Origin: Actinophytocola sp.
GTDB lineage: Bacteria > Actinomycetota > Actinomycetes > Mycobacteriales > Pseudonocardiaceae
Direction: 5' to 3'
NCBI RefSeq assembly: GCF_035942955.1
Contig: NZ_DASZCQ010000160.1
Location: forward strand, 18,878-82,877
DNA: 64,000 nucleotides
Shown: piece by piece, positions 30,165-44,939 of the stretch
Layout: every line of letters begins with the position of its first letter
Position numbering within the stretch: position 1 is the first letter of the stretch
Translations under genes and position numbers: made by a program
The notes under the pieces: model-generated
Databases searched by the model: none
What the model was told of the DNA's origin: nothing
Seen by the model: only the letters and a program-made list of their open reading frames with translations

Positions 30165-32297
30165 TCAGGGAGTCGTTTGGTACTCGCGCATTGTCCGGGT
30201 TGGCAGCAGGGTTCGCGGGTCGAGGAGGCGGCTTAGGCGGCGGCCGAAACTCATGCCCTTGTGCAGTTCGGTGCGAATGGCGTCGTTGCATTGCCAGGCG
30301 AGTTCCGCGGCGTGGTCGAGGATTCCTTCCGGGGAGTAGGCAGCCCGGTCCACGATCTCGGCCAGTGGCCGCAGAAAGGGTTGCAGCGGACCGTGGACGA
30401 CCCCGATCACCTGGCCGGTGGTCGACCGGGGGCCGACGGGGATTCCGGCCCAACGCAGAGCGTCTATCGTGTCGCGCCAGGCCGCGATGGTGCGGCGGCG
30501 CGGGGTTCCGTTGTTACGGGCCCGTCGTCGCCGCACGATCCGGACGAGCGGAATCAGCCCGAGGCACAGGACCAGCGCGATGGCGACGATCGTGGCGAGG
30601 GTCGCCAAGCCGGACATGGAGTTGGCTGGCTGGGAAGAGAGATCGCCCTGGGCGTCGGCGGTGGCATCGGGTGGTTCCTCGGGAACCTGCTGGTCGGGCG
30701 ATGGTATGTCGTCGAGGGCGTCGGCCGGTGTGGGTTGCTGGACGGTCTTGCCTTGCCCATCAATGGATTGGGTCGGGCTCGGGTTGACCGGAATCCAGCC
30801 CAGCCGTTGGAACCGTACCTCGGCCCAGGCGAACACGTTCGCGCCACGGATGTGTAGGCGGTCTCCGTCCCAGGTCGGGCGGAATCCGAGGACGACGCGC
30901 GCGTCCCAGCCTAGATGGCGACTCAGCAGCGCGAACATCGAGGCGTACTGCTCGCTGGTGCCTCGTTTGGTGTTCACCAGGTCGGTGATCTGGCGTACCC
31001 CGTGGCCGCCGCGGGCCTGCGGGGAGTTGTCGTAGCTGAAGCCGCTGGTGCTCGTCATGGCCTGGTACAGGCCGAGCAACTGACCCAGACCGGCGGAACG
31101 TCCGGCTGTCGCGGTGTCGACGAACGCGAGCACCTCGGGCGGCAGCGGCAGGCGGCTTGCTTCGCTGGTGGCCGGGTCGTCGATGCCGACGTCGTTCGCC
31201 TCGAGGATGGGCTCGCGGCCGGTGATGCGGTAGGCGGCGGGAGTGTTCCGGTCGGCGGGCACCACGACATCACCGCTGGTGGCGTCGAATCCGAGGTCCG
31301 CCACGCTGATCTGGGTCGGCCGGCCAACGCGGGGTAGCCATCCGACGCTGTCGGGCGTCAGCACTTGCAGGTCGAGTGAGACGTCCCGGGTCGGGACCGC
31401 GGAGTCGGGAGTGGACAGCCGGGTACCGGCCCGCCGGTAGCTGGCTCCGATCGTCCAGGTCTGGCCGTCGAACCGGTCGAGCGTCACCATGCGGATGAGC
31501 TCGAGCCGCTCGCTCGCGGTGCCGGCGATCTCCAATGGCAGGAGGTTGTCCCGCAGCGCGAGGTAGCGCGCCATCGGATTCGTGTCCTCTTTGGGCAGCA
31601 CGGGCGCATCGACCAGAGCCTGCAGGCTGGTCGGGGGACGGTCGGCGGCGACGAGTGGCCCCAGCACGAGTCCGGACGCGGTCGCGATGAGCACGACCGC
31701 GGCGCCGGTCACCAGTCGCCCTTTCCCGAGTGCTCCCGCGAGCGCGGCTTCCCGGCCGGCCAGCACGACCGCCATGGCGACGACGGCGAAGACCGGCCCG
31801 TACCATGCGGCCGGTGCGCCGACGGTCGCGCTCAGCCCGAGACCGAGCAGCAGGCAGCACAGCGGGGGGAGCAGCGGCAGCCAGGCATTCCGCGGGCCCA
31901 GCGCCAGCCGGACGGCGATCAGCGCGGTGAAGCCGGCGATGGTCGAAATGGTTGCCAGTTCCGGACCGGATGGATCCACCGGGAGTGTCCCGGTCAGCAA
32001 CCGGGACGGTCCGAGCCGCACGTCCGCACCCGGCCTGGTCGCCAGCGCGACCGCGATGGCCACCGACAGCACGGCCAGCGCCACCGGGCCGTTGCCAAGG
32101 GCACGCCGGCCGAGCGGCACCGCAAGGCATCCCCAGCCGGCGGCCACCGCGACGGGCGCCAGGATCGCCAGGAGCAGCGGCGGTTCCGCGCCGTCGCCGA
32201 AGGTGGCCCGGAATGACCAGGCGGACAGTGCCGACAGCCCGGCCGCGAGGACGACTCGGACGAGGGCAATGCCCCGGCCGCCAAGCATCGCTGACAT
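30165..32297 (-). CDS. transglutaminase-like polytopic membrane protein (TgpA/DUF3488-like) with substituted catalytic triad
   Basis: From ORF 30165..32333. The ATG at 32297 overlaps the DUF58 stop (TGATG); the alternative start is 32333. It has N-terminal TM helices, a core 'KRGTSEQYASMFALLSRHLGWDARVVLGF...FAWAEV...WIPVNPSP', and a C-terminal TM. Confidence 0.8.
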   Translation of the reverse strand: MSAMLGGRGIALVRVVLAAGLSALSAWSFRATFGDGAEPPLLLAILAPVAVAAGWGCLAVPLGRRALGNGPVALAVLSVAIAVALATRPGADVRLGPSRLLTGTLPVDPSGPELATISTIAGFTALIAVRLALGPRNAWLPLLPPLCCLLLGLGLSATVGAPAAWYGPVFAVVAMAVVLAGREAALAGALGKGRLVTGAAVVLIATASGLVLGPLVAADRPPTSLQALVDAPVLPKEDTNPMARYLALRDNLLPLEIAGTASERLELIRMVTLDRFDGQTWTIGASYRRAGTRLSTPDSAVPTRDVSLDLQVLTPDSVGWLPRVGRPTQISVADLGFDATSGDVVVPADRNTPAAYRITGREPILEANDVGIDDPATSEASRLPLPPEVLAFVDTATAGRSAGLGQLLGLYQAMTSTSGFSYDNSPQARGGHGVRQITDLVNTKRGTSEQYASMFALLSRHLGWDARVVLGFRPTWDGDRLHIRGANVFAWAEVRFQRLGWIPVNPSPTQSIDGQGKTVQQPTPADALDDIPSPDQQVPEEPPDATADAQGDLSSQPANSMSGLATLATIVAIALVLCLGLIPLVRIVRRRRARNNGTPRRRTIAAWRDTIDALRWAGIPVGPRSTTGQVIGVVHGPLQPFLRPLAEIVDRAAYSPEGILDHAAELAWQCNDAIRTELHKGMSFGRRLSRLLDPRTLLPTRTMREYQTTP

Positions 32298-33466
32298 CAG
32301 CCCGCCACCCCACCGAGCACGAAATGGTTCCATGCCGCCATCGCCTCGGCGCCGGTTCGGCCGCTCAGCACGACCATCCCGGGCCGGCGGTACGGCGCCG
32401 GCAACGGCAGGCCCGCGGCCACGACCGTGATCACGACGACCGGCGCGAAGCGGCGGCGCTGTTCGGCCAGCCGGGCGACCACGGCCGGCTCGCCCGCTCC
32501 GGTGACGACGACCAGCGCACCGCCCGGTTCGGCTCGGTCCACCTCTTCCAGCAGGTGCACGGGTTCGGCATCCGGTTCGCGGACCGCTGCGGCCAGTCTG
32601 TCCAAGAGCGACACCGCGCCGGCGGCGATCACCGCGGGCACATCCTCGCCGAGGATCTGGATCCGGGCCGGCCGGCCACCGTCGACCGTGCCCTGCGCCA
32701 CCGATGCGGCCACCTCAACGGCGTGTTCGAACATCGCCGCGTCGAGCACCGACGACCGGGTGTCCAGGACGATGGTGACCGCCGGCTCCATGGTGTCCGT
32801 GGACTCCCGCACGATCAGTTGTCCGGTGTGGGCGGTGGAGCGCCAGTGGATCCGGCGTGGATCATCGCCGGGGACGTACTCCCGCAGCGAGGAGAACCAG
32901 GTCGTGCCGGCCTTCGACAGCTCGGCCCGGCCTTCGAAGTCGGGCACCGTCCCCACCGGTACGGGATACGACGGATGGACCCGGGGATGCACCCAGAGCA
33001 CGCCCGTGTCGCGATGCAGCTGCGCGCGGCGGAACAGGCCGAACGGATCCTGCCGTTCGACGCTCAACGGTCCCAGGGGCAACCGTCCCCGGCGATCGGT
33101 GGGGATGGGGTAGTGCACGGTGCGGGACCCGCCGGCTCGGAGGACGGGCACCTGTATCCCATGTGGACGGTCATCGACCCGGTCCACCACGACCATGGCG
33201 GGCAACGGCCACCGGGCCAGGTTGCGCACGACCAGCCGGCCCGCGGCGGGCTCGCCCACGCTGATCCGGTCCGGCGCCACGCTTCGGGTCAGCCGCAGGC
33301 TCGGCCGGACCACCACGGTGACCCCGGCCAGTGCGAGGACGGCAAGGCCGGTCAGGCCGAGCGTCACCAGCACCGGGTACCCCCAGGCCCGACCGACCAG
33401 CCCCAAGATCACGGCGGCGGCCACGACGCACCAGCCGCTGCCGGTCAGCGGAATCCGGCGGCTCAT
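32297..33466 (-). CDS. DUF58 domain-containing protein (vWA-like partner of MoxR)
   Basis: The start is the internal ATG of ORF 32297..33832, 2 nt after the moxR stop. It has two N-terminal TM helices and 'REYVPGDDPRRIHWRSTAHTGQLIVRE'. Confidence 0.85.
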   Translation of the reverse strand: MSRRIPLTGSGWCVVAAAVILGLVGRAWGYPVLVTLGLTGLAVLALAGVTVVVRPSLRLTRSVAPDRISVGEPAAGRLVVRNLARWPLPAMVVVDRVDDRPHGIQVPVLRAGGSRTVHYPIPTDRRGRLPLGPLSVERQDPFGLFRRAQLHRDTGVLWVHPRVHPSYPVPVGTVPDFEGRAELSKAGTTWFSSLREYVPGDDPRRIHWRSTAHTGQLIVRESTDTMEPAVTIVLDTRSSVLDAAMFEHAVEVAASVAQGTVDGGRPARIQILGEDVPAVIAAGAVSLLDRLAAAVREPDAEPVHLLEEVDRAEPGGALVVVTGAGEPAVVARLAEQRRRFAPVVVITVVAAGLPLPAPYRRPGMVVLSGRTGAEAMAAWNHFVLGGVAG

Positions 33467-33468
33467 GA

Positions 33469-34464
33469 TCAGCCGACCGCCGCCGGCGCCGGGGCCGGGA
33501 CCGAGGCCATGATCTCGGCGAGGATGTCGCCGGTCTTGATGCCGTGCACCTCCGCCTGTGCGGTGAGCACGAGCCGGTGGGCGAGCACGGGCGCGGCGAC
33601 CGCGCGCACGTCGTCCGGCACGACGAAGTGCCGACCGAGGCCGAGCGCGAACGCCTGGGCCGCGCGCAACAGGGCGAGGCTGCCACGGGTGCTCATGCCC
33701 AGCCGCAGGGCCTTGTGCTCCCGGGTGGCGTGCGCCAGCAACGCCACGTAGCGGACGACCTCCGGCGCCGCGTAGATCGACGAGGCCACCTGGTGCTGCA
33801 GCGCGGCGATCTGGTCGAGGCTGGCGACGCACCGCACGGCGGGCGCGGCGGCCTGCGCGCGGCCGGTCAGGATCTCGGTTTCGACGTCCAGATTCGGGTG
33901 GCCCAACGAGATCCGCATGAGGAACCGGTCCAGCTGCGCCTCGGGGAGCTGGTAGGTGCCTTCGAGATCGATCGGATTCTGCGTGGCGACGACGAGAAAT
34001 GGGGTGGGGACCGGACGGCCGCGCCCGTCCACCGTCACCTGGCCCTCCTCCATGACCTCGAGCAGGGCGGACTGCGTCTTCGGACTGGCCCGGTTGATCT
34101 CGTCGGCCAGCACGATGTTGGCGAACACCGGGCCGGGACGGAAGGTGAACTCCTGCTCGCCCTGATTCCAGACCGAGACGCCGGTGATGTCACCGGGCAG
34201 CAGGTCGGGCGTGAACTGGATCCGTTGCCAGCTGCCGGCGATGCTGGTGGCCAGCGCCTTGGCCAGCGACGTCTTGCCGGTGCCGGGCACGTCCTCGATC
34301 AGCAGGTGGCCGTTGGCGAACAGGCAGGCCAGGGCCAGCCGGACGGCCGCGGTCTTGCCGCGGATGGCACGTTCGACCTCCGCGAGCACGGCGTCGTGCA
34401 CGCTGCGGAACATCTGCTGCGGATCGCCCGGGATCACGGCGGGCGCGGTGTGCTGGTTGGTCAC
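33469..34464 (-). CDS. moxR: MoxR-family AAA+ ATPase
   Basis: From ORF 33469..35487; a GTG at 34464 follows AAGGAAA. Motifs: Walker A 'GTGKTS', Walker B 'LADEINRA', 'ATQNPIDLEGTYQLPEAQLDRF'. Confidence 0.9.
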   Translation of the reverse strand: MTNQHTAPAVIPGDPQQMFRSVHDAVLAEVERAIRGKTAAVRLALACLFANGHLLIEDVPGTGKTSLAKALATSIAGSWQRIQFTPDLLPGDITGVSVWNQGEQEFTFRPGPVFANIVLADEINRASPKTQSALLEVMEEGQVTVDGRGRPVPTPFLVVATQNPIDLEGTYQLPEAQLDRFLMRISLGHPNLDVETEILTGRAQAAAPAVRCVASLDQIAALQHQVASSIYAAPEVVRYVALLAHATREHKALRLGMSTRGSLALLRAAQAFALGLGRHFVVPDDVRAVAAPVLAHRLVLTAQAEVHGIKTGDILAEIMASVPAPAPAAVG

Positions 34465-34490
34465 GGATTTCCTTGGGATTGGTTGGGGTT

Positions 34491-36851
34491 TCAGCGCGGC
34501 AGGCAGGCCGGTCCGGCCGATGGTTCGGAGGGAGTGGTCACGCCGAGCGCGATCACGACGTAGCAGGCGGATGGCAGCGGATCGAGGTCCGGGAAGCTGA
34601 CGATGGCGCTGGGCACCGAATCGAGCAACTGTCCATTGCGGAGGATGACGAACGAGGTCAGTCCAGGCAGCTCGCGGGATTCGGGCGGCCAGGACAGCGT
34701 GACCCGCCCATCCGCGGTGTCGATCCGCACCGGCACCTTGTGGTCGGTACCGGGGAGCGTGGTCGTGGTGGGGGGCGGGGTGATCCGATCGGTGGAGTCG
34801 CGCTGGCCGACCCAGATTCCCACGCCGATGCCCAGAGCGGCGACCAGCCCGGCGATGGCGGTCAGCACCAGCCAGCGCCGCCGGGCCCGCCGGCGGTCCG
34901 GCGGCTCGGCGGGACGGGGATGCGGCGGATGGGCGCTGATCTCGGTCGGCGTCACTCCGGAGTGGACGGTGGCGTGCGGGTCGACCGGCTGCGGCGCCAC
35001 GTCGGGGGAGCTCAGCCAGGGCGGTTCCGCCGGCACGGCGATGCGCACGGTGCTCTCCGCGTCGATGACCGGGACCGGTTGAGCCGGTCCCGTCAGCAGG
35101 AGCTCCCTTGCCAGGTCGCTGAGCACCTCGGAGGCTTCGAGCGCGGTGGGGCGTCCGCGCGGATCCTTGGCCAGGCACGCCGCGAGAAACGACCACGCCG
35201 CCTCGGGCAGGTCCGGCGGGCGGGGCGGCGTGCGCAGCTGGTGCTGCCGGAGGATGTCCTCCGTGCTGCCGGCGAACGGGCGGTGTCCGGCCAGCACCTC
35301 GTACGTGGTGATGCCCAGCGCGTAGATGTCGCTGGCCGGGGTCGGCGACTCCCGGTTGACCAGCTCGGGTGCGATGTAGGGCGGTGAGCCGGGCAGATAG
35401 CCGAGTTGGGTGACCGGGGCTCCGTCGACCGCCTTCACCAGACCGAAATCGGTGAGCAGTGCCCGAGTCCGGCCATTCTGCTCGCACACCAGGATGTTCG
35501 CCGGCTTGAGGTCGCGATGGACGACGCCGCTCGCGTGCACGGCGGTCAGCCCGGAGGCGACCTCGGACAGCAGCCGCAGGCCCTCGGCCCGGTCGAGCTC
35601 CCCGGCCACCAGCAGCCGCCGCAGGTCGGTGCCCTCGACCAGGTCCATGATGACGGCCGCTTCGCCCTTGCCCTTGGCGATGTAGAGGTCACGCACCCGC
35701 ACCAGGTGCGGGTGGTCCAGGTCCTGCACCACCGATGCCTCGCGCACCAGCCGCATCAGGCTGTCGGGATCGGTGACCAGGTCCGGACGCAGCAGCTTGG
35801 CGGCCACGAGCATCCCGTCGGCTCGCCGCCGAGCCCGCCACACGGTGCCCATGCCGCCCTCGCCGATCCTCGCCAGCAGCTCGTACTCGCCGCCCAGCGA
35901 TCGCGGAAGTTCGGCGCCACGGTGCTCCGAGGGCACGGTGCTCCGGACGTCTATTGTGGACTGCGGATCCCGCAGGTGCTTGGCGAAAGCGGCCACCGAC
36001 GGTGGTCGGGAGCCCGGTTCGCTGGACAGCGCCCACCGCAACGCGGTGGTGAACTTCGCCGCGGCCTCGGGCAACTGGCCCACCGGGCTCTGCCCGGCGA
36101 ACAGCACCCGCTCGGCCCGGCTGCCGGAGAACGGTGGCCGGCCGCTGAGCAGGGTCCACAGCGTGGAGGCCAAGGCGTAGACCTCGCCGGCCGGCGTCCA
36201 GTCCTGCCCGGCGAGCTGCTCCGGTGGCTCGTGGCCGGTGCCCTCCGTGGTGGCCGCGGCAATCTCGGCGAGCGCCGGCAGCAGCGGGCAGTCCAGCACG
36301 ACGTGGCCGGTGGGCTGACGCAGCAGCGCGGCCGGGCTGATCGCCTGATGGACGGTGTCGTTGCGATGCAACAACTCCAGCCCGCTCGCGGCAGCCAGGA
36401 CGGCCTGCAGCGCCTCGGCGACGGGGAGCGGCCCGCGGGCGGCGAGCTCGTCGGCGAGCGACCGTCCTCGTCGAGCGGTGACCAGAACCGGGCGGCCGCC
36501 GGCATCCCGATCATGGTGCAGTAGCGGAAGAACGAAGGGGTTGCGGCTGACGGCGAGCACATTGTCCAGTGCCGCGGCCTCGTCCCGAACGCGCCGCAGC
36601 TGCGTCCGGTCCAGCTTGGCCACGACGACTCGCACGGTGACTTCGGTTCCGTCGTCCCGGATCGCCGGAGCGACCGCGAACAACCCGTCGTCGGTTGGTT
36701 CGCTCAACAGGCGGTAGCCGTCAAGCGGTCCGGCGGCCACTCCTGCGCCACCCCCACGAGAAAACGTCGATCTACCAACGCCGAACACATCACGCACGGC
36801 GTGCGGGCCGTTACACAGTACCCGCGGCCGGTGGTCGATCGTCGCGGTCAT
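34491..36851 (-). CDS. membrane Ser/Thr protein kinase with N-terminal pseudokinase domain, canonical kinase domain, one TM helix and an Fn3-like ectodomain
   Basis: ORF of 786 aa. The active domain has 'GEGGMGTVW', 'VAAKLL', 'HRDLKPANIL', 'DFGL', 'SPPYIAPE'. The N-domain has 'HQAISPAALL' and 'LDCPL' instead. The TM helix is 'WLVLTAIAGLVAALGIGVGIWVG'. Confidence 0.85.
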   Translation of the reverse strand: MTATIDHRPRVLCNGPHAVRDVFGVGRSTFSRGGGAGVAAGPLDGYRLLSEPTDDGLFAVAPAIRDDGTEVTVRVVVAKLDRTQLRRVRDEAAALDNVLAVSRNPFVLPLLHHDRDAGGRPVLVTARRGRSLADELAARGPLPVAEALQAVLAAASGLELLHRNDTVHQAISPAALLRQPTGHVVLDCPLLPALAEIAAATTEGTGHEPPEQLAGQDWTPAGEVYALASTLWTLLSGRPPFSGSRAERVLFAGQSPVGQLPEAAAKFTTALRWALSSEPGSRPPSVAAFAKHLRDPQSTIDVRSTVPSEHRGAELPRSLGGEYELLARIGEGGMGTVWRARRRADGMLVAAKLLRPDLVTDPDSLMRLVREASVVQDLDHPHLVRVRDLYIAKGKGEAAVIMDLVEGTDLRRLLVAGELDRAEGLRLLSEVASGLTAVHASGVVHRDLKPANILVCEQNGRTRALLTDFGLVKAVDGAPVTQLGYLPGSPPYIAPELVNRESPTPASDIYALGITTYEVLAGHRPFAGSTEDILRQHQLRTPPRPPDLPEAAWSFLAACLAKDPRGRPTALEASEVLSDLARELLLTGPAQPVPVIDAESTVRIAVPAEPPWLSSPDVAPQPVDPHATVHSGVTPTEISAHPPHPRPAEPPDRRRARRRWLVLTAIAGLVAALGIGVGIWVGQRDSTDRITPPPTTTTLPGTDHKVPVRIDTADGRVTLSWPPESRELPGLTSFVILRNGQLLDSVPSAIVSFPDLDPLPSACYVVIALGVTTPSEPSAGPACLPR

Positions 36852-39800
36852 CGGGCATCACCCGGCCCACCAACCAGGTCCTCGGTCAGGTGCAGCGGCA
36901 CCTGCGCCAACGTAGCCTGTCCACGAAGCACCAGTAGACCGCGCCCGGGTGGCCAGCCGCCCGCCATGGACCGGGACAGCCGCACGTCGAAGACCTCGCC
37001 GGCGAGATGGCTCGCCGGGTTGAGCAGCAGCCCGCTGCGCGCCCGGCGGGCCTGGGCCAGCCACCCGCGATACCGGTTGATCAACAGGTCGTCGGTCGTG
37101 GCCGCCGCCACGAGCACCGACCCGGTCTCCCGTGCCTCGAGGAGGAAACGTTCCAACGCCTCGCCCAGCGCAAGCTCGTCGACCAGCTCGCCGTCGTCAA
37201 CGACCACGGCGACCGGACCGCCGGCGGACAGGACCAGATCGTCGAACTCCGCCGGGGCCGCGCCGGTGGTCACGCCGAGCACACCGGCCAGGTCGGCCAC
37301 CTGCCGCAGCGGCGACGGCCGCGGTGTCACCAGCACGACCGGAAGCCGGCCGTCGGGACGGCCGGCAAGGCCGTGCACGATGGTGGCCAGCGTGCTGGAC
37401 CGTCCCGATCGGCCAGGACCGGCGACGACGAACGTTCCACCGACCTCGGCGAGATCGACGTCGACCGGGCCCGCGTGGTCTCCGCCGACGGCCGGAGTGC
37501 AGACGGTGGCGGCCGGCGACCGGGTGGCTCCCCTGAGCGCCTCGGCCTCGGCGATGGAGATCCGGTCCGGCAGCGGATCTATGCGGTGCGGCAACAACGC
37601 CGGGTCCAGGTCGTCCGCAGCGGCGCGCAGGCGTGCGGCGAGCCCGGCCAGCGCCCGGATCTGTGCGGCCCCGGACGGGTCTGCGTCGAGGAGCGGGAGC
37701 TGGACCTCCTCTCCGGCGGCCGTCCAGATCGCCCGGCCCGCCGGCATCCGGGCCGGCACGGCCCGCGGCGAAAGCCCGAAGACCGCGACGTCGTCCCGAT
37801 CCGCCTGGCGCAGCACCAACCGGTGCTCGATGGCGGTGGCGATCCGTGGTCCGAACGCGGTGCGGTCCGTGCTCAGCACCGTCACCAGCCCGACGGCCGG
37901 TCCCCGGCGCAGCAGTCCCTCCAGCAGCTCCACCAGGCGGCCGCCGTCGTGCTCGTCGAAGGCGGATCGGAATCCCTCCAACCGATCCAGCAGCAGGATC
38001 AGGTAGGGCAACCGGTCCGCCGGCGCGGCGGCCCGGCGTTGCTCGGCAAGACCGCTGTACCCGCCGGCCAGCACGCGTTGCCGGCGGCGCACCTCACCGT
38101 CCAGCCAGTCCAGCAGGCGCGCCACCCGCATCGAGTCCTCGGCATCCACAATGGCGCCGCTGTGCGGCAGCTCGGCGAGCGGCGCCAGGGCCCGATTGCC
38201 GCAGTCCAGGCCGTAGATGTGCACGGTGTCCGGTCCGGTGGCCGCGCACAGGCCGGCGGCGATGGCGCGCAACGCGGTGGAGCGACCGGTCCGCACCGTG
38301 CCACCCACTGCGATCGGCCCGGTCCGCTCGAGATCGAGCTCGAAGGCGTCCTGTGCCTGCGCGGTGGGCCGATCGACGAGTCCTAATAGGACACAGAGCG
38401 GCGGCCGTTGGGAACCCGGCGAGAGTTCCGCGGTGACGACGTCGGGCAGCGGCGGCAGCCACGGGCGCCGCGGACTGCTCAGGCCCAGCTGCCGCGCGGC
38501 CACTCGGCTCGCGGCCACGAGGGCGGTCAGATCGGTGTGCCCATCGGCGTCCACGTCGGCGGCCGCGCTCGCGCCCGCCCTGGGCGAGCGGCCGAGCTCC
38601 GTCGTCCGCCGGGGGCGCACGGACACCGGCTCCGGGCCCGGCGACTCGGCATCGGCGGCCCTGGGCCAGCCGACCCGGGCGGCCTGGAAGGCAGTCAGGT
38701 CGCCGTGGCCGGTGCGCAGGTATGCCCGGCCCGGTTGACGCGAGGTGATGCGGGCGGCATCCGGTGCGTCGATCACGTCCACCGACTCGCTCTCCGCGGT
38801 GACCCGCAAGCAGATCCTCAGGTTGAGGTTGGCCCGCAGGTCGGCGGTCACCACGCCGCCCGGACGCTGGGTGGCGAGCACCACGTGCACGCCGAGGCTT
38901 CGGCCGCGCATGCCGATGCCCACCACGCCCGGAACGAACTCCGGGACCTCCTCGATCAGCGAGGCGAACTCGTCCACCACGATCACCAGCCGGGGCAACC
39001 GGTCTCCGGTGCGGGCCCAGTAGTCGTCGATGTCCTTCGCCTCGGCGTCGGCGAGCAGCTTCTCCCGGCGGCGGAGCTCGGCCGACAGCGAGTCCAGCGC
39101 GCGGCCGACCAGGTGCCCGTCGAGGTCGGTGATCAACCCGACGCAGTGTGGAAGCTCCGCGCAGGCGGCGAATGCGCTCCCGCCCTTGTAGTCGACCAGG
39201 ACGAAGGTCAGCGCGTCGGGCATGTTGCGCACGGCCAGCGACGCGATCAGGGTCTGCAGCAGCTCGGATTTCCCGGCGCCCGACGTGCCGGCGATCAGCG
39301 CGTGCGGGCCGTCCCGGCGAAGGTCGACGGTGAGCGGCCCGGACGGGCCGACGCCAAGCACGGCCGTGGTGGACCGGCCCTCGGGTGAGCCCGCCCACGC
39401 CGCGCGGACCAGCTCGCCGTCGGTCTCCCGGCCCGAGATCGCCAGCCCGGCCAGCTCGGTGAACCGGACCCGCTCCGGCAGCGCCTCCGCACCCGCGGGC
39501 ACGCCGAGCGTGTCGAGCGGCGCCAGCGCCAGCGCCATCCGCATGGCGTGGCCCGGCTCGAGGCCGTCCACCAGGAGGTCCTCGATGACCGGCAGGTCGG
39601 CGCGACGCAGCCGGGCCCGGCTTCCGGACGGGCTGGTCAGCACGGCGGTCGCGCCGCATTCCGCCGGCAGCGCCGTCTCGTCGTCATCCAGGCAGAGGGC
39701 GTACACACCGGCGGTGGGCCCGTCGGCCAGCAGCTCGGCCAGCCCGGGCAGTCCGCGCATCCGCCGGGCGCCGTCCACGACGACGAGGAACTCCCGGCCG

Positions 39801-41290
39801 GCCGAGCGTCCCGTGCGCAGCGAGGAGCGTTGCCGCACAAGGCGTTCCGCGACCAGTGCGCGCAGTTCGGACAGCCTCGACTCGGCCTGGGCGCCGTCCG
39901 TGGCGACCAGGCGAGAGCTGCCGAACGTCGGGCCGGACGGCCGGGTGTGCGGCAGCCAGGTCGCCCATTCCCAGTCAGCGGATTCGTCCTGCCCGGTGAT
40001 GACGACGACGCCCAGGTCCCGCGGCGCGTGCAGCCCGCCCGCCTGGGTCACGACTGCCCGCGCGGCGGCGAGCAGGCCACGGCGTTCCCCGGCCATGCCG
40101 AGGACTCCGACCCGGCGCAGCTCGACCGTCGCGGGAACGTCGCGCACGGTGGGCACCGCGGGCAACTCGGCCGAGCCACCGCGGGGTTGCGGATAGCGGG
40201 GATCGAACCGCAGCCGCAGCTCGGCCTGCCGGTCGTGCAAGCCCAGCCGCAGCCGAAGGAAGTCGGGATCGCTCGGGCGCCTTTCCCATAGCCGTGCGGA
40301 TGGTGCGCACGCGGCAGCGGCGACCCAGGACGGATCGGGGTGGACGGCACGCGCCCGGCGCTCGTCCGCGGCGCACGCGGCGGCGAGTGCGCCGCGGAAC
40401 GTCTCGAGCGCCAGGTCGTACTCCTTCTTCCGCGCCGCGTACTCCCGGCGCCCCGAACGCCGGTCCCCGATCAGGTTGGCCAGCACCATGACCGGGCTGA
40501 GCAGCATGATCAGCAGGAAGTAGCCGGCGTTGGGCAGCAGGACGTACAGCCCCCCGCCGAACAGCAGCGGCAGCAGCACGGCGATCCACGGGAACCGGAA
40601 ACCGCTGGGCTTGTCCGGTTCCACCGGCACCAGCAGCGCGTGGGGCGGCTCCGGCATGGAGATCCGCGGCGGCCGGTTGAACCAGCGCGTACCGTTTCCC
40701 GGTTCGGCCGTGACGTCCGCGTCCGCAAGCACCGTCGGGCGCAGGCCGAGCACCGTCTCGCCCAGGCCGGCCACGTCGCCGACGGCGAGCCGGGCCGGTT
40801 CGGTCAGCCGCCATCCCTGCCAGCGGATTCCGTTGTGGGAGTTGGCATCCGCCAGCCATACGACACCGTCCGCGCCGACCGAGATCGTGGCGTGGACACG
40901 GCTGACCTCCGGATCGGCAATCGCCAGGTCGGCCTCCGGTCCGCGGCCCAACCGCAGTTCGGTGCCGGGATACAGCAGGCGGCTCGGTCCGCCATGCAGG
41001 CCGCCGACGACCGAGATCTCCGGAATCTCCCCACTGGTCACGCCGTGGCCGGAGGTCAGCAGCGGTTGGCCGACCCCGACCACGGCGCCGTTGGCGAGTC
41101 CCGAATCCGCCACCGACACGTCACCCGGTACCGGCATGGTCCCCAGATACAGGGGACCGGCGGCCCGGTCGCCGAGGTGCTCGGCCAGAGCCGCGGTCAG
41201 GTCCGCGATGCGGTGGGACGGTGCGGCCGTGACGACCACCGGACGCGACACGCCGTCCGGGCCGACACAGACCAGCTCGATCTCGGTCAT
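36848..41290 (-). CDS. EssC/EccC-like type VII secretion FtsK/SpoIIIE ATPase: ubiquitin-like N-domain, FHA domain, 2 TM helices, three P-loop domains
   Basis: ORF of 1480 aa. FHA: 'LRLGRGPEADLAIADPEVSRVHATI...ADANSHNGI'. D1: 'GTSGAGKS', 'VIVVDEFA', 'LATQRP'. D2: 'GGTVRTGRST'. D3: 'GPGRSGRSS', 'VVVVDDGE'. Confidence 0.85.
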   Translation of the reverse strand: MTEIELVCVGPDGVSRPVVVTAAPSHRIADLTAALAEHLGDRAAGPLYLGTMPVPGDVSVADSGLANGAVVGVGQPLLTSGHGVTSGEIPEISVVGGLHGGPSRLLYPGTELRLGRGPEADLAIADPEVSRVHATISVGADGVVWLADANSHNGIRWQGWRLTEPARLAVGDVAGLGETVLGLRPTVLADADVTAEPGNGTRWFNRPPRISMPEPPHALLVPVEPDKPSGFRFPWIAVLLPLLFGGGLYVLLPNAGYFLLIMLLSPVMVLANLIGDRRSGRREYAARKKEYDLALETFRGALAAACAADERRARAVHPDPSWVAAAACAPSARLWERRPSDPDFLRLRLGLHDRQAELRLRFDPRYPQPRGGSAELPAVPTVRDVPATVELRRVGVLGMAGERRGLLAAARAVVTQAGGLHAPRDLGVVVITGQDESADWEWATWLPHTRPSGPTFGSSRLVATDGAQAESRLSELRALVAERLVRQRSSLRTGRSAGREFLVVVDGARRMRGLPGLAELLADGPTAGVYALCLDDDETALPAECGATAVLTSPSGSRARLRRADLPVIEDLLVDGLEPGHAMRMALALAPLDTLGVPAGAEALPERVRFTELAGLAISGRETDGELVRAAWAGSPEGRSTTAVLGVGPSGPLTVDLRRDGPHALIAGTSGAGKSELLQTLIASLAVRNMPDALTFVLVDYKGGSAFAACAELPHCVGLITDLDGHLVGRALDSLSAELRRREKLLADAEAKDIDDYWARTGDRLPRLVIVVDEFASLIEEVPEFVPGVVGIGMRGRSLGVHVVLATQRPGGVVTADLRANLNLRICLRVTAESESVDVIDAPDAARITSRQPGRAYLRTGHGDLTAFQAARVGWPRAADAESPGPEPVSVRPRRTTELGRSPRAGASAAADVDADGHTDLTALVAASRVAARQLGLSSPRRPWLPPLPDVVTAELSPGSQRPPLCVLLGLVDRPTAQAQDAFELDLERTGPIAVGGTVRTGRSTALRAIAAGLCAATGPDTVHIYGLDCGNRALAPLAELPHSGAIVDAEDSMRVARLLDWLDGEVRRRQRVLAGGYSGLAEQRRAAAPADRLPYLILLLDRLEGFRSAFDEHDGGRLVELLEGLLRRGPAVGLVTVLSTDRTAFGPRIATAIEHRLVLRQADRDDVAVFGLSPRAVPARMPAGRAIWTAAGEEVQLPLLDADPSGAAQIRALAGLAARLRAAADDLDPALLPHRIDPLPDRISIAEAEALRGATRSPAATVCTPAVGGDHAGPVDVDLAEVGGTFVVAGPGRSGRSSTLATIVHGLAGRPDGRLPVVLVTPRPSPLRQVADLAGVLGVTTGAAPAEFDDLVLSAGGPVAVVVDDGELVDELALGEALERFLLEARETGSVLVAAATTDDLLINRYRGWLAQARRARSGLLLNPASHLAGEVFDVRLSRSMAGGWPPGRGLLVLRGQATLAQVPLHLTEDLVGGPGDAR

Positions 41291-41295
41291 GGCCG

Positions 41296-41556
41296 TCAGT
41301 GGTTGGCGGCCTGGTCGATCAGGTGCTTGCGCCGGTCGACCTCCTGCGCCGCGCGGCTGAGCTCATCGGCCAGGTTGCGCAGCGCCGGGTTGAACTCGCT
41401 CTCCCACGCCTGCCGGAACCGGTCCGCGGCCGCGCCGGTCCAGGTGGTGGTGTTGATCAGCGTGGTGAGGGCGCGCTGCAGGTCGGTGACCTCCCCACCG
41501 CACACGCCCAAGCGGCGGGACAGCGTCTCCAGCTCGGCCAGCTCCGCCTTGATCAT
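41296..41556 (-). CDS. WXG100-family protein (86 aa)
   Basis: Its size, helical character and central 'TTWTGAAADRFRQAW' (W-x-G) fit the family. Its stop lies 5 nt upstream of the EssC-like start. Confidence 0.65.
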   Translation of the reverse strand: MIKAELAELETLSRRLGVCGGEVTDLQRALTTLINTTTWTGAAADRFRQAWESEFNPALRNLADELSRAAQEVDRRKHLIDQAANH

Positions 41557-41637: not shown

Positions 41638-42309
41638 CTACCTGCCCGGCAGCAGCCGGAGATCGCCGGAGTTGATCAGCCGGCTAGTCAGTGCGTATTC
41701 GGCCAGGTTGCTCAGCGCGTTCGGGCCCGTCATGGCGGGCACACCGGCCTTGTCGAGCCGGCTGCGCAGGTACTCGATCCGCTTCACGAGCGTGGTTCTA
41801 GCCCACCCCAACCGTTTGGCGGCCGCCTCGTACGAGCGCGGGTGCGGGTCGTACCGGTCGCCTTCCTCCAGGTAGCCGGCGAACAGGGCGATCAGCGCCA
41901 GCCGGTCCTGCTGTGTGATCGTCACGTCCTGGCCGATCGTGGTGGGCACGCCGTCGACCGGTAGCTCGACCTGCGGTGTCCGGCGCTCCGGCGCGTCCAC
42001 GCGGAGCAGGTACGGCTTGGGCCGGCTGCCCTGCACCAGAACACGCATGCGGCCTTCCAGGGCGAATTTTCGGCCCGGCGCGAGCACGCTGCGGATCCCG
42101 TGCGTGTCGACCACTTCCAACATGCGAGTAGAGCTCACGTTCACCAGAAACCACGTTCCGTTGTCGGACCGGATGATGCCGGCCGTGCGGGAAATCGCGG
42201 CGTCGTCCGGGGCCAGGCAGTGCGTGCACTGCGTGGACCTGCCGAAACTGAACTCGTGTCCAATCTGGAGGACATATTTGTCCATTTCCGCGTGGACCGT
42301 CACGCTCAT
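41638..42309 (-). CDS. FHA domain / C-terminal HTH regulator
   Basis: ORF of 223 aa with the FHA-like 'FSFGRS....ISRTAGIIRSDNGTWFLVNVSS' and C-terminal 'AAAKRLGWARTTLVKRIEYLRSRL'. Confidence 0.65.
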   Translation of the reverse strand: MSVTVHAEMDKYVLQIGHEFSFGRSTQCTHCLAPDDAAISRTAGIIRSDNGTWFLVNVSSTRMLEVVDTHGIRSVLAPGRKFALEGRMRVLVQGSRPKPYLLRVDAPERRTPQVELPVDGVPTTIGQDVTITQQDRLALIALFAGYLEEGDRYDPHPRSYEAAAKRLGWARTTLVKRIEYLRSRLDKAGVPAMTGPNALSNLAEYALTSRLINSGDLRLLPGR

Positions 42310-42416: not shown

Positions 42417-44939
42417 GTGACCATCCTGCGCAGAATGATCGGACGAGGCAGGACCGGGTCGACCGTCCTGGTCGGAACGCTTCTCGCCGGCGTTCTCGCC
42501 GCGTCATTCGGGGTGGGCTACAGCGCGACGACGCCGGAACTGAACGACGGCACCAACCACGTTCCGCACGGCCACGGCATCTCGCAGGTGAACAGCGAGA
42601 CGCAGCGCGTTGAGAACGAGGCCAGGGCGTTGGCGACCGGCAAGGAGGAGATCGAGGTCGTCGAGCTGCAGGACGGCCGGGCCGCCGCGGTGAACAACCG
42701 GACGGGCGAGGTGCGCGTGTACCCGCGCGACCTCGGAACCGACTCCACCGTGACGCCACCCCAGGCCGGCAAGGACAAGCCGGTACCGCCGGGGGAGCAG
42801 CCCGCGGTGGTCGCCGGGAAGGACTCGGGCTACGTCGTCGATCCGACCGGGAACACCGTCCGGCAGCTCGGCGTCGACGGGCCGGCGCCGCCGCCGGTAC
42901 AGATCGACGGCGGCGCCAGCCGGACCGCCGTTCCCGACGGGGCCGGCGGCATCTGGGTGCTGACCGACGACGAGAAGGCCGTGCACGTCGTGCGTGACCG
43001 CATCGTCCACCGGGTCACCGCCCCCGACCCGATCAGGCAGCTCAGCGTGGCCGACGGGCGCCCGGTGGGAATCACCTCGAAGGGGGAGGCGCTCGACATC
43101 GCCGCCCGGCCGCTGCGCGCGATCGCCAGCCGTCCGGTACCGTCCGGGCCGAGCGTCGTGGTCGGGTCCCCGCGTGGGGCGGGCCGCTATCTCCTCGTGC
43201 TGGATCGCAAGGACGGCCGGCTGTTCGCCGTCGACCCGCGAACCCGTGCCGTTCATGACATCGGCACGCTGCCGACCGACTCGCCCAACAGCCTCGGCGC
43301 GCCGGTGATCCTCGACGACCGCGCCTACATCCCGCAGTACGCCCCGCGCAAGCACCGGCTCTTCGTCCGTGAGCTGCCGAGCGGCACCCCGCACGACGAT
43401 GTCCCGGTCCCCGGCGAGCACGAGCGGTTCACCCTCGAGGTGCGCGACCACCGCGTGTGGGCCAACGACCAGTTCGACCGCCGTGTCGTGGTGGTCGGCC
43501 GCGATGGCCGGCCCGCGGTGATCGACAAGGGCGACCGGCCGGGCGTGCAGAGCGACACCACCCAGGGCGAGCACAAGGACCAGGCGCCGCCCAAGGACAC
43601 TCCGCCGAGCACGGTCCCGCCGCCCCCCACGACGGCTCCGCCACCCAGCACCGAGGCAACCGATCCACCACCGTCGCGGGTCACCGTGCCCGAGATCGCG
43701 CGTGGGACTCAACAGGATGTCGCCTGCGACCGCGTCAGGGCCGTCGGCTTGCGTTGCGACATCGTCGAGGTGGGCCCGGGCGGCCCCACCGGAACGGTCC
43801 GCGACACCAAACCGCTCGGCGGAAGCCGGGTCCCCGAGGGCTCGGTCGTGCGGGTCTTCGTGTACGGGCCGGTCTCGGTGCCCAGCGTCGTCAACCTGCT
43901 GTCCGACGCGGCCTGCGCGAAGATTCTGAGCGGCGCGGGGGAACCCGGCGCCGGTGGCCAACTGAAGTGCGTCAAGGAACCCATGCCCGGCACCGGACGT
44001 ACGTGGTCCGATTTGGACGTCGTCGCCGAGCAGAACCCCGCGGCGGGCACGCGTGTCGAGCTCGACACCACGGTCACCATTCGGTTCTGGAACACGGTTC
44101 TCATGGAGAACCTGGCCGGCCGCAACGGCGAGAGCGAGTGCCAGAGAGTCATTGCCTCCTCCCGCAACCGGGTCACTTGCACCATGCAGTTGTCTAGTGG
44201 GCGACACACACCCGACCAGGCCGGCCAAGTCGCGTCGCAGTCACCACCGCCAGGCAGCCCGGTGGGGATCGGGGGTTCGATCGTGCTGGACGTCTACGGC
44301 GCGTCGCCGCCGCCCAGCGTCCCACCTATGGTCGGAACCGAGATCAACGCGGCGTGCCAGGCCGCGAGCAACGCCGGCTACACCTGCGACGCGCGCGCGG
44401 ATGTGCCGCTGTCCAACACCCCCAACGTCGTTCTGTCCCAGGAGCCGCCACCGGGCACGCCACAGCAGGGCGGCAACGTGATCCTGCACTATTCGAACAA
44501 CCAGGGCGCGGGACTCCAACCGCTGTACCGCTTCCGCGCCGCCAACAACGACCCGGTGTGGATCGTCCGGCTGGGCAACGCCCCGGTGGAAGGCTATGCG
44601 AACCCCGTCCATATCGGGTGGGCCTACAACGCGGCGGTCGGTGGAACGTGGACGATCAATGACTTCTACTGTACGGGCAAACCCAGCAACTGCGGTGGCT
44701 TCGAGCGCAATCACTACTACACCAAGAATGATCAACCAGTCATTCCGAACTTCGACAAGCACTACGCCGTGGGCGCCTTTATTCAGGCTCCCGACGGTCA
44801 ATGCGCCCCCGGCCAGCGGCGCATGTACCGCTTCAAGTATCACGCCAATGATGGACGAAGGTACTTTATCGGCGAAGGTCGACCAGACGGCTGGCCGGAT
44901 GACTATGAAGAATGGCTAGGGTGTATCTGGGCGCCGTAG
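42417..44939 (+). CDS. membrane-anchored surface protein: N-terminal TM, ~330-aa beta-rich domain, Pro-rich linker, four PASTA-like repeats, C-terminal Cys/aromatic domain with two 'YRF' repeats
   Basis: ORF of 840 aa with a GTG start after AGGAG. The PASTA-like units begin at 'VTVPEIARGTQQDVAC', 'VSVPSVVNLLSDAAC', 'VLMENLAGRNGESEC' and 'SVPPMVGTEINAAC'. It has no kinase or PBP domain. Confidence 0.7.
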   Translation: MTILRRMIGRGRTGSTVLVGTLLAGVLAASFGVGYSATTPELNDGTNHVPHGHGISQVNSETQRVENEARALATGKEEIEVVELQDGRAAAVNNRTGEVRVYPRDLGTDSTVTPPQAGKDKPVPPGEQPAVVAGKDSGYVVDPTGNTVRQLGVDGPAPPPVQIDGGASRTAVPDGAGGIWVLTDDEKAVHVVRDRIVHRVTAPDPIRQLSVADGRPVGITSKGEALDIAARPLRAIASRPVPSGPSVVVGSPRGAGRYLLVLDRKDGRLFAVDPRTRAVHDIGTLPTDSPNSLGAPVILDDRAYIPQYAPRKHRLFVRELPSGTPHDDVPVPGEHERFTLEVRDHRVWANDQFDRRVVVVGRDGRPAVIDKGDRPGVQSDTTQGEHKDQAPPKDTPPSTVPPPPTTAPPPSTEATDPPPSRVTVPEIARGTQQDVACDRVRAVGLRCDIVEVGPGGPTGTVRDTKPLGGSRVPEGSVVRVFVYGPVSVPSVVNLLSDAACAKILSGAGEPGAGGQLKCVKEPMPGTGRTWSDLDVVAEQNPAAGTRVELDTTVTIRFWNTVLMENLAGRNGESECQRVIASSRNRVTCTMQLSSGRHTPDQAGQVASQSPPPGSPVGIGGSIVLDVYGASPPPSVPPMVGTEINAACQAASNAGYTCDARADVPLSNTPNVVLSQEPPPGTPQQGGNVILHYSNNQGAGLQPLYRFRAANNDPVWIVRLGNAPVEGYANPVHIGWAYNAAVGGTWTINDFYCTGKPSNCGGFERNHYYTKNDQPVIPNFDKHYAVGAFIQAPDGQCAPGQRRMYRFKYHANDGRRYFIGEGRPDGWPDDYEEWLGCIWAP

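Follow-up and report, generated by a model that had tools for sequence, protein, structure and literature searches.

The type VII secretion systems (T7SS) of the types T7SSd, from Actinomycetota, and T7SSe are composed of a WXG100 protein, an EssC-type ATPase whose FHA domain has a phospho-threonine site, and a membrane Ser/Thr kinase, TsdD or TseD; these kinases have the topology of the EssB pseudokinase but an intact active site, and a tandem of kinase domains is not described for them (Garrett et al. 2024, PMC11217815). The Esr pathway of Schaalia odontolytica senses epibionts and controls Esx via threonine phosphorylation of an FHA protein, and its parts are a surface sensor, a MoxR protein, a von Willebrand factor A (vWA) protein, a transglutaminase, the kinase EsrE, a phosphatase and the FHA protein EsrG (Wang et al. 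2026, preprint, PMC13622651). Out of 3502 Esr clusters 40% adjoin esx genes, and EsrG is often fused to EccC (PMC13622651). Here we describe a gene for a membrane-bound tandem kinase, in which a pseudokinase domain precedes an active kinase domain, in a 64,000 nucleotide stretch of Actinophytocola sp. (NCBI RefSeq assembly GCF_035942955.1, contig NZ_DASZCQ010000160.1, positions 18,878 to 82,877; in the following the window). While this type of locus has already been published (2024 and 2026), the pseudokinase-kinase fusion within it appears to be undescribed.

A recent review of the bacterial pseudokinases lists ActPs1-3, GLW, CP1, DYD, DLHK and EssB, and it says nothing of tandems (2025, PMC12599244). 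In the MoxR-vWA systems of actinobacteria the kinase domains are mostly catalytically disrupted (Kaur et al. 2020, PMC7159879). Our literature searches for bacterial pseudokinase-kinase tandems gave eukaryotic cases only.

Anatomy of the tandem kinase

The gene had been picked out in a preliminary description made from the letters of the window without database searches. The coordinates given there are correct, and the gene lies on the minus strand. Its features are the following.

34491..36851, minus strand: whole gene, encoding a 786 aa pseudokinase-kinase-transmembrane-ectodomain protein (open reading frame and translation)
35961..36734, minus strand: pseudokinase domain, aa ~40-297, predicted to have a complete bilobal Hanks fold (PknB match, AlphaFold2, Foldseek, ortholog columns)
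35904..35960, minus strand: inter-domain linker, aa ~298-316, predicted to be disordered (predicted local distance difference test, pLDDT, below 50 at 300-313)
35082..35903, minus strand: active RD Ser/Thr kinase domain, aa 317-590 (Pfam Pkinase, ortholog conservation)
34893..35081, minus strand: juxtamembrane linker, aa ~591-653 (pLDDT below 50, 25% identity)
34803..34892, minus strand: predicted single transmembrane helix, aa ~654-683 (model helix at 653-683, sequence)
34494..34742, minus strand: predicted extracytoplasmic seven-stranded beta-sandwich, aa ~704-786 (model, invariant residues)

Two Hanks-type kinase folds in series had been proposed for this protein, and Pfam, the match to PknB, AlphaFold2 and Foldseek agree on them. 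As judged from sequence and model, the N-terminal domain has the whole of a PknB-type kinase fold, but its active site has been dismantled. Residues 1-312 alone match Pfam Pkinase with an E value of 1.3e-7 and 31.8 bits, which is just above the curated cut-off of 31.7 bits, and the domain matches the sequences of the M. tuberculosis PknB crystal structures with an E value of 2.8e-12. The alignment to PknB pairs VAVK, HRDVKPAN and DFG of PknB with VTVR, HQAISPAA and DCP, respectively, confirming the motifs HQAISPAA and DCP and the missing Gly-rich loop that had been read by eye. In addition to this loop the domain lacks the beta3 Lys (R74), the Asp of HRD (A170), the Asn of the catalytic loop (A175) and a conserved DFG. 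An AlphaFold2 model of residues 38-312, built on 28 homologs, has a pLDDT of 92.5 and a predicted template modelling score (pTM) of 0.89. Compared with the PDB by Foldseek, this model matches PknB and PknA best, over ~267 columns, with template modelling scores of 0.75-0.80 and E values of ~3e-16, and all 50 matches listed are protein kinases, with none to YukC/EssB. The objection that the N-terminal region might adopt no kinase fold, which the preliminary description had raised against itself, is refuted by this comparison.

Residue columns and pairwise identities were taken from an alignment of 29 orthologs. In the beta3 column of the N-terminal domain His is found in 15 sequences, Arg in 7, another residue in 7 and Lys in none. 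The column of the HRD Asp contains Ala, Gly, Arg, Val or a gap and never Asp, the catalytic Asn is likewise absent from all 29 sequences, and the DFG Asp is present in 9, while the alphaC Glu (E91) is kept in 28. Pairwise identity averages 0.46 in the pseudokinase and 0.52 in the kinase, compared with 0.35 in the ectodomain and 0.25 in the juxtamembrane linker. By this measure the dead domain is under purifying selection and is nearly as conserved as the live kinase. Invariant in the N-terminal domain are the motif GTGHEPPE, which replaces the GT..APE of the activation segment, W218, the alphaF helix and the RP of subdomain XI. The conserved residues cluster in the activation-segment/P+1 region, to which GTGHEPPE and W218 belong, and in the alphaF helix, a pattern which points to a maintained protein-binding surface and not to decay.

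A recent internal duplication was considered as the origin of the pseudokinase domain and was rejected. The domain matches its own C-terminal neighbour with 30% identity and 52.8 bits (range about 35-57 bits), and the active kinase domains of unrelated multi-kinase proteins with about 105-110 bits; since the unrelated domains are the better match, the pseudokinase is not a recent copy of the adjacent kinase.

The second fold matches Pfam Pkinase at aa 323-573 with an E value of 3e-57 and has every catalytic motif, as the preliminary description had stated: GEGGMG, VAAK (K352), HRDLKPAN (D447), DFG (D468) and APE can all be read in the sequence. Only the catalytic Asp had been misnumbered as D446, its actual position being D447. 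None of the 29 orthologs deviates at K352, E371, D447, N452, D468 or T481, the last of which lies in the activation loop. By its sequence this C-terminal domain is an active Hanks-type Ser/Thr kinase.

The AlphaFold2 model of the full-length protein has a pLDDT of 80.4 and disordered stretches at residues 1-36, 300-313 and about 597-650. Within the two poorly ordered linkers short islands around a Thr are conserved. The one between the kinase domains, ET-x-x-P-x-x-P, lies ~20 residues ahead of the active kinase, and its Thr is kept in most orthologs and in 12 of the 13 sequences of a wider set. The juxtamembrane one, T636-x-x-[S/A/G]-x-R-P, lies ~20 residues ahead of the membrane, and T636 is found in 26 of the 29 orthologs and again in 12 of the 13 sequences of the wider set. 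Both islands are candidate sites of autophosphorylation and FHA docking.

An Arg-rich stop-transfer stretch, RRRARRRW, precedes the transmembrane helix. The ectodomain is modelled with a pLDDT of about 90 and has seven beta strands at 704-769; C763 and C783 are invariant and W721 is conserved. Its profile gives weak but consistently Fn3-type matches (fibronectin with an E value of 0.009, NagJ, chitinase A1, DCC), and Pfam fn3 matches 3 of the 26 ectodomain members. The single-pass membrane receptor with a pseudokinase ahead of an active kinase, as first described, is upheld, and so are, by the model, the transmembrane helix and the beta-rich ectodomain; the Fn3-like character ascribed to the latter is plausible from these weak profile matches.

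The ATG of the kinase gene and the TGA of the upstream gene, which encodes a 1480 aa EssC-like protein, share the four bases ATGA (DNA: GAT GCC CGA TGA CCG); this overlap had been noted before and can be read directly in the DNA. The identical protein in the database has 749 aa, as the public gene call begins at V38, 37 codons further in, where a GTG at window position 36740 offers an alternative start. An N-terminal extension of similar kind is present in several orthologs, and residues 1-36 belong to the predicted disordered stretches. The preliminary description would have failed if the true start codon lay downstream of the first fold. As either start, including that at V38, leaves the whole N-terminal domain in the protein, this is not the case. 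A gene fusion or annotation artefact was rejected because neither the 29 aligned orthologs nor 7 further genomes show a break in the frame and because the linker is conserved.

The operon and its partners

On the minus strand the operon has the order FHA-HTH gene, WXG100 gene, EssC-like ATPase gene, tandem kinase gene, MoxR gene, DUF58 gene and TgpA-like gene. The genes surrounding the tandem kinase are the following.

41638..42309, minus strand: 223 aa protein with a diverged FHA-like N-terminal half and an HTH-like C-terminal half (weak matches)
41296..41556, minus strand: WXG100 protein, 86 aa, with a W-T-G motif (Pfam WXG100 E 1.5e-8, above cut-off)
36848..41290, minus strand: EssC-like T7SS ATPase, 1480 aa, with N-terminal FHA domain (TIGR03928, Pfam FHA, FtsK_SpoIIIE)
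33469..34470, minus strand: MoxR-type AAA+ ATPase (Pfam AAA_3 E 2e-62, bpMoxR E 1e-7, synteny)
30165..33832, minus strand: DUF58 and TgpA-like genes (Pfam DUF58, Transglut_core, TgpA_N), comprising the two lines below
about 32297-33472, minus strand: DUF58 protein (Pfam DUF58)
30165-32333, minus strand: TgpA-like transglutaminase-fold membrane protein (Pfam Transglut_core, TgpA_N)
42417..44939, plus strand: PASTA surface protein, 840 aa, four PASTA repeats (Pfam PASTA E 4.5e-18, four stretches)

The EssC-like protein matches TIGR03928 (EssC) with an E value of 2e-145, Pfam FHA with 2e-11 and FtsK_SpoIIIE with 5e-49, and has two FtsK domains. Alignment of its FHA domain to M. tuberculosis FhaA finds all phospho-threonine elements kept, namely Gly-Arg, Ser-Arg-x-His and Asn-Gly (GR...SRVH...NG). 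From its sequence this ATPase is the presumed reader of the kinase output. Ahead of the FHA domain, the first ~75 aa (window 41068-41290, minus strand; MTEIELVCVGPDGVSRPVVVTAAPSHRIADLTAALAEHLGD...GAVVGVG) look by eye like a ubiquitin-like beta-grasp of the YukD/EsaB type. This stretch has no Pfam match, and it is kept in the EssC remnant of Saccharothrix described below. T7SSd is reported to have no ubiquitin-like component (PMC11217815).

The FHA-HTH protein, encoded by the first gene of the operon, is a second candidate phospho-reader. It is 57% identical to its Saccharothrix ortholog and all its family matches are weak (Pfam FHA E 0.01, HTH_8 E 0.013, TIGR03354 E 1.3e-4). Its FHA half keeps Gly-Arg and Ser-Arg, has Ala in place of the canonical His (ISRTAG) and shows no clear Asn-Gly; to judge from these residues it may be non-standard in phospho-threonine binding. 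Of the two FHA domains that the preliminary description counted in the operon, that of the EssC-like protein is firm, with its pocket kept, and that of the FHA-HTH protein is a weak match.

Downstream of the kinase, MoxR is the first gene of an invariably linked MoxR-DUF58-TgpA triad. The second member of the triad carries DUF58, which we take to be a vWA-type fold. The core of the TgpA-like protein (about aa 455-520) reads GTSEQYASMFA ... FAWAEV ... VNPSP, with Ser, Phe and Asn where Cys, His and Asp are usual, and by this sequence the pseudokinase seems to share its operon with a pseudo-transglutaminase. The bpMoxR model which the MoxR protein matches is that of the MoxR-vWA-beta-propeller ternary systems (Kaur et al. 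2020, PMC7159879). The PASTA protein is transcribed divergently from the operon, has an N-terminal anchor and adjoins the cassette in most of the syntenic loci; on this ground it is a candidate extracellular sensor partner.

The locus contains three of the T7SSd components, a WXG100 protein, an FHA-bearing ATPase with GR/SxxH/NG and a membrane kinase. TsdD, TscD and TseD of T7SSd, T7SSc and T7SSe are likewise bitopic kinases with a cytoplasmic catalytic domain, encoded beside WXG100 and an EssC-type ATPase, and in T7SSd the phospho-threonine-binding residues of the ATPase FHA domain are kept, as they are here. TsdD, however, is described as having one kinase domain only, which is active and N-terminal, and an extracellular region of helices, whereas here a pseudokinase comes first and the ectodomain is a predicted small beta-sandwich. 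At this locus we recognised no counterpart of TsdH, a small protein with a single transmembrane segment, or of TsdI, a large Sec-exported protein with immunoglobulin (Ig) repeats and a C-terminal transmembrane segment. In their place are found MoxR-DUF58-TgpA, the FHA-HTH protein and the PASTA protein.

The gene set of Esr and MoxR-vWA systems is also present, with MoxR, DUF58, Transglut_core/TgpA_N, Pkinase and FHA on EssC, and it is kept in 13 loci. Both Esr and this cassette combine a kinase with MoxR, a vWA-type protein, a transglutaminase-fold protein, a surface protein and an FHA output linked to esx, a likeness of gene content only, and the EsrG-EccC fusion is paralleled by the FHA domain on the EssC-like ATPase. 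There are also differences. No pseudokinase domain is mentioned for EsrE in the paper (PMC13622651), and the sensor EsrA is a filament of a beta-propeller and Ig repeats, while the surface protein here has PASTA repeats.

A known anti-phage system was also considered for the locus and rejected, as the PADLOC matches are generic kinase-domain ones (PD-T4-6, Mad6, PglW) and none falls on the partner proteins. The NCBIfam matches of the kinase to MADS6 and PglW reflect the same generic kinase similarity.

Distribution of the cassette

About 40 relatives that are full-length, with 700-870 aa, came out of a database search, those named being from Saccharothrix, Actinosynnema, Lentzea, Actinophytocola and other Pseudonocardiaceae. 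A scan with the N-terminal domain through 1.84 billion library representatives gave 21 clusters at E <= 1e-30, and about 40 relatives of 690-880 aa with a degenerate N-terminal and a second kinase domain.

Exact look-up of the proteins led to six loci, five of which have the FHA protein, the tandem kinase, MoxR, DUF58 and TgpA in this order; in the sixth (L083) the order is kept up to the point where the contig stops, inside the gene following DUF58. Three more complete cassettes, in three families, were found when 201 genomes of the same order were searched and the neighbourhoods retrieved. Across the class, 40 loci with FHA-bearing EssC homologs were retrieved. The closest 4 belong to two further families and contain the cassette in full, a degenerate-plus-active tandem kinase among its genes. 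In the other 36 both the MoxR triad and a tandem kinase are missing, and 6 of these loci have a single-domain kinase nearby. The tandem kinase is associated with the cassette in 13 of 13 loci, six from the look-up and seven from genomes, which come from at least five GTDB families.

In two Saccharothrix loci (L081:8421-9974 and L084:8259-9938) the EssC homolog is shrunk to 517-559 aa, keeping residues 1-207, with the ubiquitin-like stretch and the FHA domain, and residues 309-592, while the transmembrane segment and all three ATPase domains are gone. No WXG100 gene is called in these loci, and the tandem kinase, the FHA-HTH protein, the PASTA protein and MoxR-DUF58-TgpA are intact. These gene contents suggest a loss of the secretion motor with retention of the signalling module. 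A 751 aa single-domain kinase from a small-genome family of the same order adjoins MoxR-DUF58-TgpA on the opposite strand (L096, G002:C2:1-14000), and within the 14 kb retrieved no EssC, WXG100 or pseudokinase match was found; kinase and triad are associated here in a simpler form. The synteny, the FHA-EssC loci without a tandem kinase, the Saccharothrix loci and L096 together indicate that the link of the kinase to the sensing module is no weaker than its link to the secretion core, and they suggest that the kinase is part of the module rather than of the core. The preliminary description, which placed the gene inside a secretion operon, is right as to its position beside the WXG100 and EssC-like genes; the gene is, however, tied at least as tightly to MoxR-DUF58-TgpA and survives the loss of the ATPase.

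The tandem can also exist outside the cassette. One locus of the same family (L095, G015:C216:9530-11269) encodes a 579 aa degenerate-plus-active tandem kinase with 39% identity in the N-terminal domain and has no cassette genes around it. Four Streptomyces loci, L001-L004, appeared tandem-like by match length; L001, the sole one inspected, consists of separate neighbouring open reading frames, and the loci were set aside.

Peptidoglycan-hydrolase genes lie beside small WXG-like genes in several cassettes and differ between them, with CHAP in L083:2570-3898, SLT_3 and VanY in L085:1-481 and SLT in L082:1-1039. These differing domains would fit a variable cell-wall-degrading cargo.

Once the single-domain proteins among the 150 best representatives are set aside, most of the remainder have 2-6 kinase-like domains, of which one is often degenerate, according to crude motif calls. 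Among the library proteins P0148-P0264 many, with 560-2570 aa, have 2-6 kinase-like domains per chain, and by the same crude calls often at least one is without the HRD, DFG or Lys motif. From these sequences multi-kinase and pseudokinase-kinase chains seem to be common in bacteria yet unstudied. The earlier statement that bacterial tandems are rarely described is true for the literature, where we found none, but not for sequence space.

Proposed function of the pseudokinase and of the cassette

The reading that we favour, and hold to be probable with moderate confidence on the basis of sequence, models and analogy, is that the protein is a bitopic receptor kinase which serves as the phospho-signalling step of an Esr-like/T7SSd-like cassette, in which it would be comparable to EsrE and TsdD. 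Secretion and transcription would be gated by way of FHA domains, and the pseudokinase would be a non-catalytic regulator or dock. This reading is supported by the dead and the live kinase fold, the selection on the dead domain, the conserved Thr islands, the synteny and the intact FHA pocket, and by the precedents of T7SSd/T7SSe (PMC11217815) and Esr (PMC13622651). The cassette would couple an envelope-sensing module, made up of the PASTA protein, MoxR, DUF58 and the TgpA-like protein, to the FHA-bearing ATPase of the EssC/WXG100 pair and to the FHA-HTH regulator.

We infer the following course, which covers signal and substrates, the direction in which regulation acts, and the partner bound by the pseudokinase. 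An envelope signal, perceived through the Fn3-like ectodomain, the MoxR module or both, would cause oligomerisation and autophosphorylation at T481. The active kinase would then phosphorylate Thr residues, probably including those of its own inter-domain and juxtamembrane islands. The FHA pocket of the EssC-like protein, and possibly the FHA-HTH protein, would bind the phospho-threonine sites, and secretion and transcription would be switched. The pseudokinase would act without catalysis, as an allosteric partner of the adjacent kinase, as a dock for an FHA-bearing partner, or as both.

The same logic as proposed here is found in mycobacteria for MviN (Rv3910; ActPs3) with PknB and FhaA, MviN being a membrane protein with an intracellular pseudokinase whose tail is Thr-phosphorylated by a PknB-type kinase and recruits an FHA domain (PMC12599244). 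There, kinase, pseudokinase and FHA domain are on three proteins, whereas here kinase and pseudokinase are one chain and the FHA domain is on the secretion ATPase, and the activation-loop deletion that is the hallmark of ActPs3 is not seen.

Several points weigh against this reading. The pTM of the full-length model is only 0.45. The residue at +3 of the juxtamembrane Thr is small (Ser, Ala or Gly), and a small residue at this position is not the usual preference of FHA domains. As the TgpA-like core is without Cys, His and Asp, the covalent sensor-anchoring step proposed for EsrD is not simply transferable to this locus. The PASTA protein matches PDB sequences by its PASTA repeats only; its N-terminal ~330 aa have no family match and no PDB sequence match, and these searches gave no beta-propeller like that of EsrA. 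A PP2C phosphatase, such as Esr1 and T7SSe have, was not seen among the cassette genes. Finally, Esr is reported mainly from Actinomycetales and Propionibacteriales (PMC13622651), and the Pseudonocardiaceae and relatives studied here lie outside the orders where it is reported to be common.

The alternative that survives best, though we regard it as unlikely, makes the protein an analogue of EssB, i.e. first of all a part of the secretion machine. The pseudokinase would then be a structural scaffold to which the EssC FHA domain binds whether or not phosphorylation has taken place, and the active kinase would be a secondary insertion. EssB/YukC of the firmicute T7SSb shares with this protein a cytoplasmic pseudokinase, one transmembrane helix, an extracellular domain, the position beside essC and an FHA-bearing EssC as partner, and the FHA domains of T7SSb EssC bind the EssB pseudokinase (PMC9600267, to the extent that it is cited in PMC11217815). 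The three catalytic motifs and the Gly-rich loop are all degraded, as in EssB (PMC12599244), and the YukC hidden Markov model (PF10140) has no match anywhere in this 99.7%-complete genome, in which no other EssB-like protein was found. The tandem kinase itself, however, matches neither of the YukC/EssB models (PF10140 and TIGR03926), and the 50 best structural matches of its N-terminal domain are all active kinases, PknB and PknA first. An active kinase stands between pseudokinase and membrane, which is not so in EssB. The gene tracks the MoxR-DUF58-TgpA triad and not EssC, as the 36 FHA-EssC loci without a tandem kinase illustrate, and the two Saccharothrix genomes keep it despite the loss of the EssC ATPase domains and of WXG100. 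The phospho-threonine pocket of the FHA domain, moreover, is kept here and lost in the T7SSb FHA domains (PMC11217815).

A combination of both ideas, in which the dead domain is a built-in EssB-like scaffold and one chain joins an FHA-docking pseudokinase, which in the firmicute T7SSb is a core protein of its own, to a live, mark-making kinase, we consider quite unlikely.

Dead and live kinase folds in one chain are known from JAK (JH2-JH1), GCN2 and plant tandem kinase proteins, with the pseudokinase first in JAK and GCN2. By analogy to JH2, the pseudokinase could be a purely intramolecular autoinhibitor or activator of the adjacent kinase that binds no partner, which we find distinctly improbable. 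The domain order is that of JAK and GCN2, the N-terminal domain is strongly conserved, and PknB dimer-interface mutants are among its Foldseek matches, PknB-type kinases being regulated by lobe-lobe dimer contacts. The most conserved residues, however, lie in the substrate groove and activation segment and not in the N-lobe, which suggests a surface for binding a peptide or partner, and an action of this kind is compatible with the receptor-kinase reading and does not exclude it. The eukaryotic tandems are of independent origin, and the term JAK-like of the preliminary description fits the domain order and nothing else, since both domains here are nearest to PknB-type kinases, FERM, SH2 or other accessory domains are absent, and the protein itself spans the membrane.

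It is very improbable that the N-terminal domain is an atypical active kinase or nucleotide binder of the WNK or ActPs2 type, since, although it has a beta3 Arg, E91 (kept in nearly all orthologs) and an Asp at the DFG position in the window's protein, and although a model exists of an ActPs2 pseudokinase that binds ATP and has a beta3 Arg (PMC12599244), the beta3 residue is variable, the DFG Asp is kept in a minority of the 29 orthologs, the catalytic Asp and Asn in none, the Gly-rich loop is missing, and no compensating invariant Lys or Asp is seen among them.

Returning to the receptor-kinase reading, the cassette extends the kinase- and FHA-regulated T7SS variants (2024) and the threat-sensing Esr pathway (2026 preprint) to the Pseudonocardiaceae and neighbouring families of soil actinomycetes. 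If the built-in EssB-like scaffold were true, the family would be a living intermediate showing how T7SS pseudokinase scaffolds arise from PknB-type regulatory kinases, and it would be the first example from bacteria of a secretion ATPase that is gated through pseudokinase-kinase allostery. Pseudokinase-kinase tandems are central in eukaryotic signalling, as in the JAKs, GCN2 and the plant immune tandem kinases, while bacteria are essentially without a studied example. This family offers a compact and well-conserved bacterial case whose partners, the FHA domain on the ATPase, the FHA-HTH protein and the MoxR module, are encoded alongside. As many bacterial proteins with several kinase domains are present in sequence libraries, a mechanistic study of this one could inform a large unexplored class.

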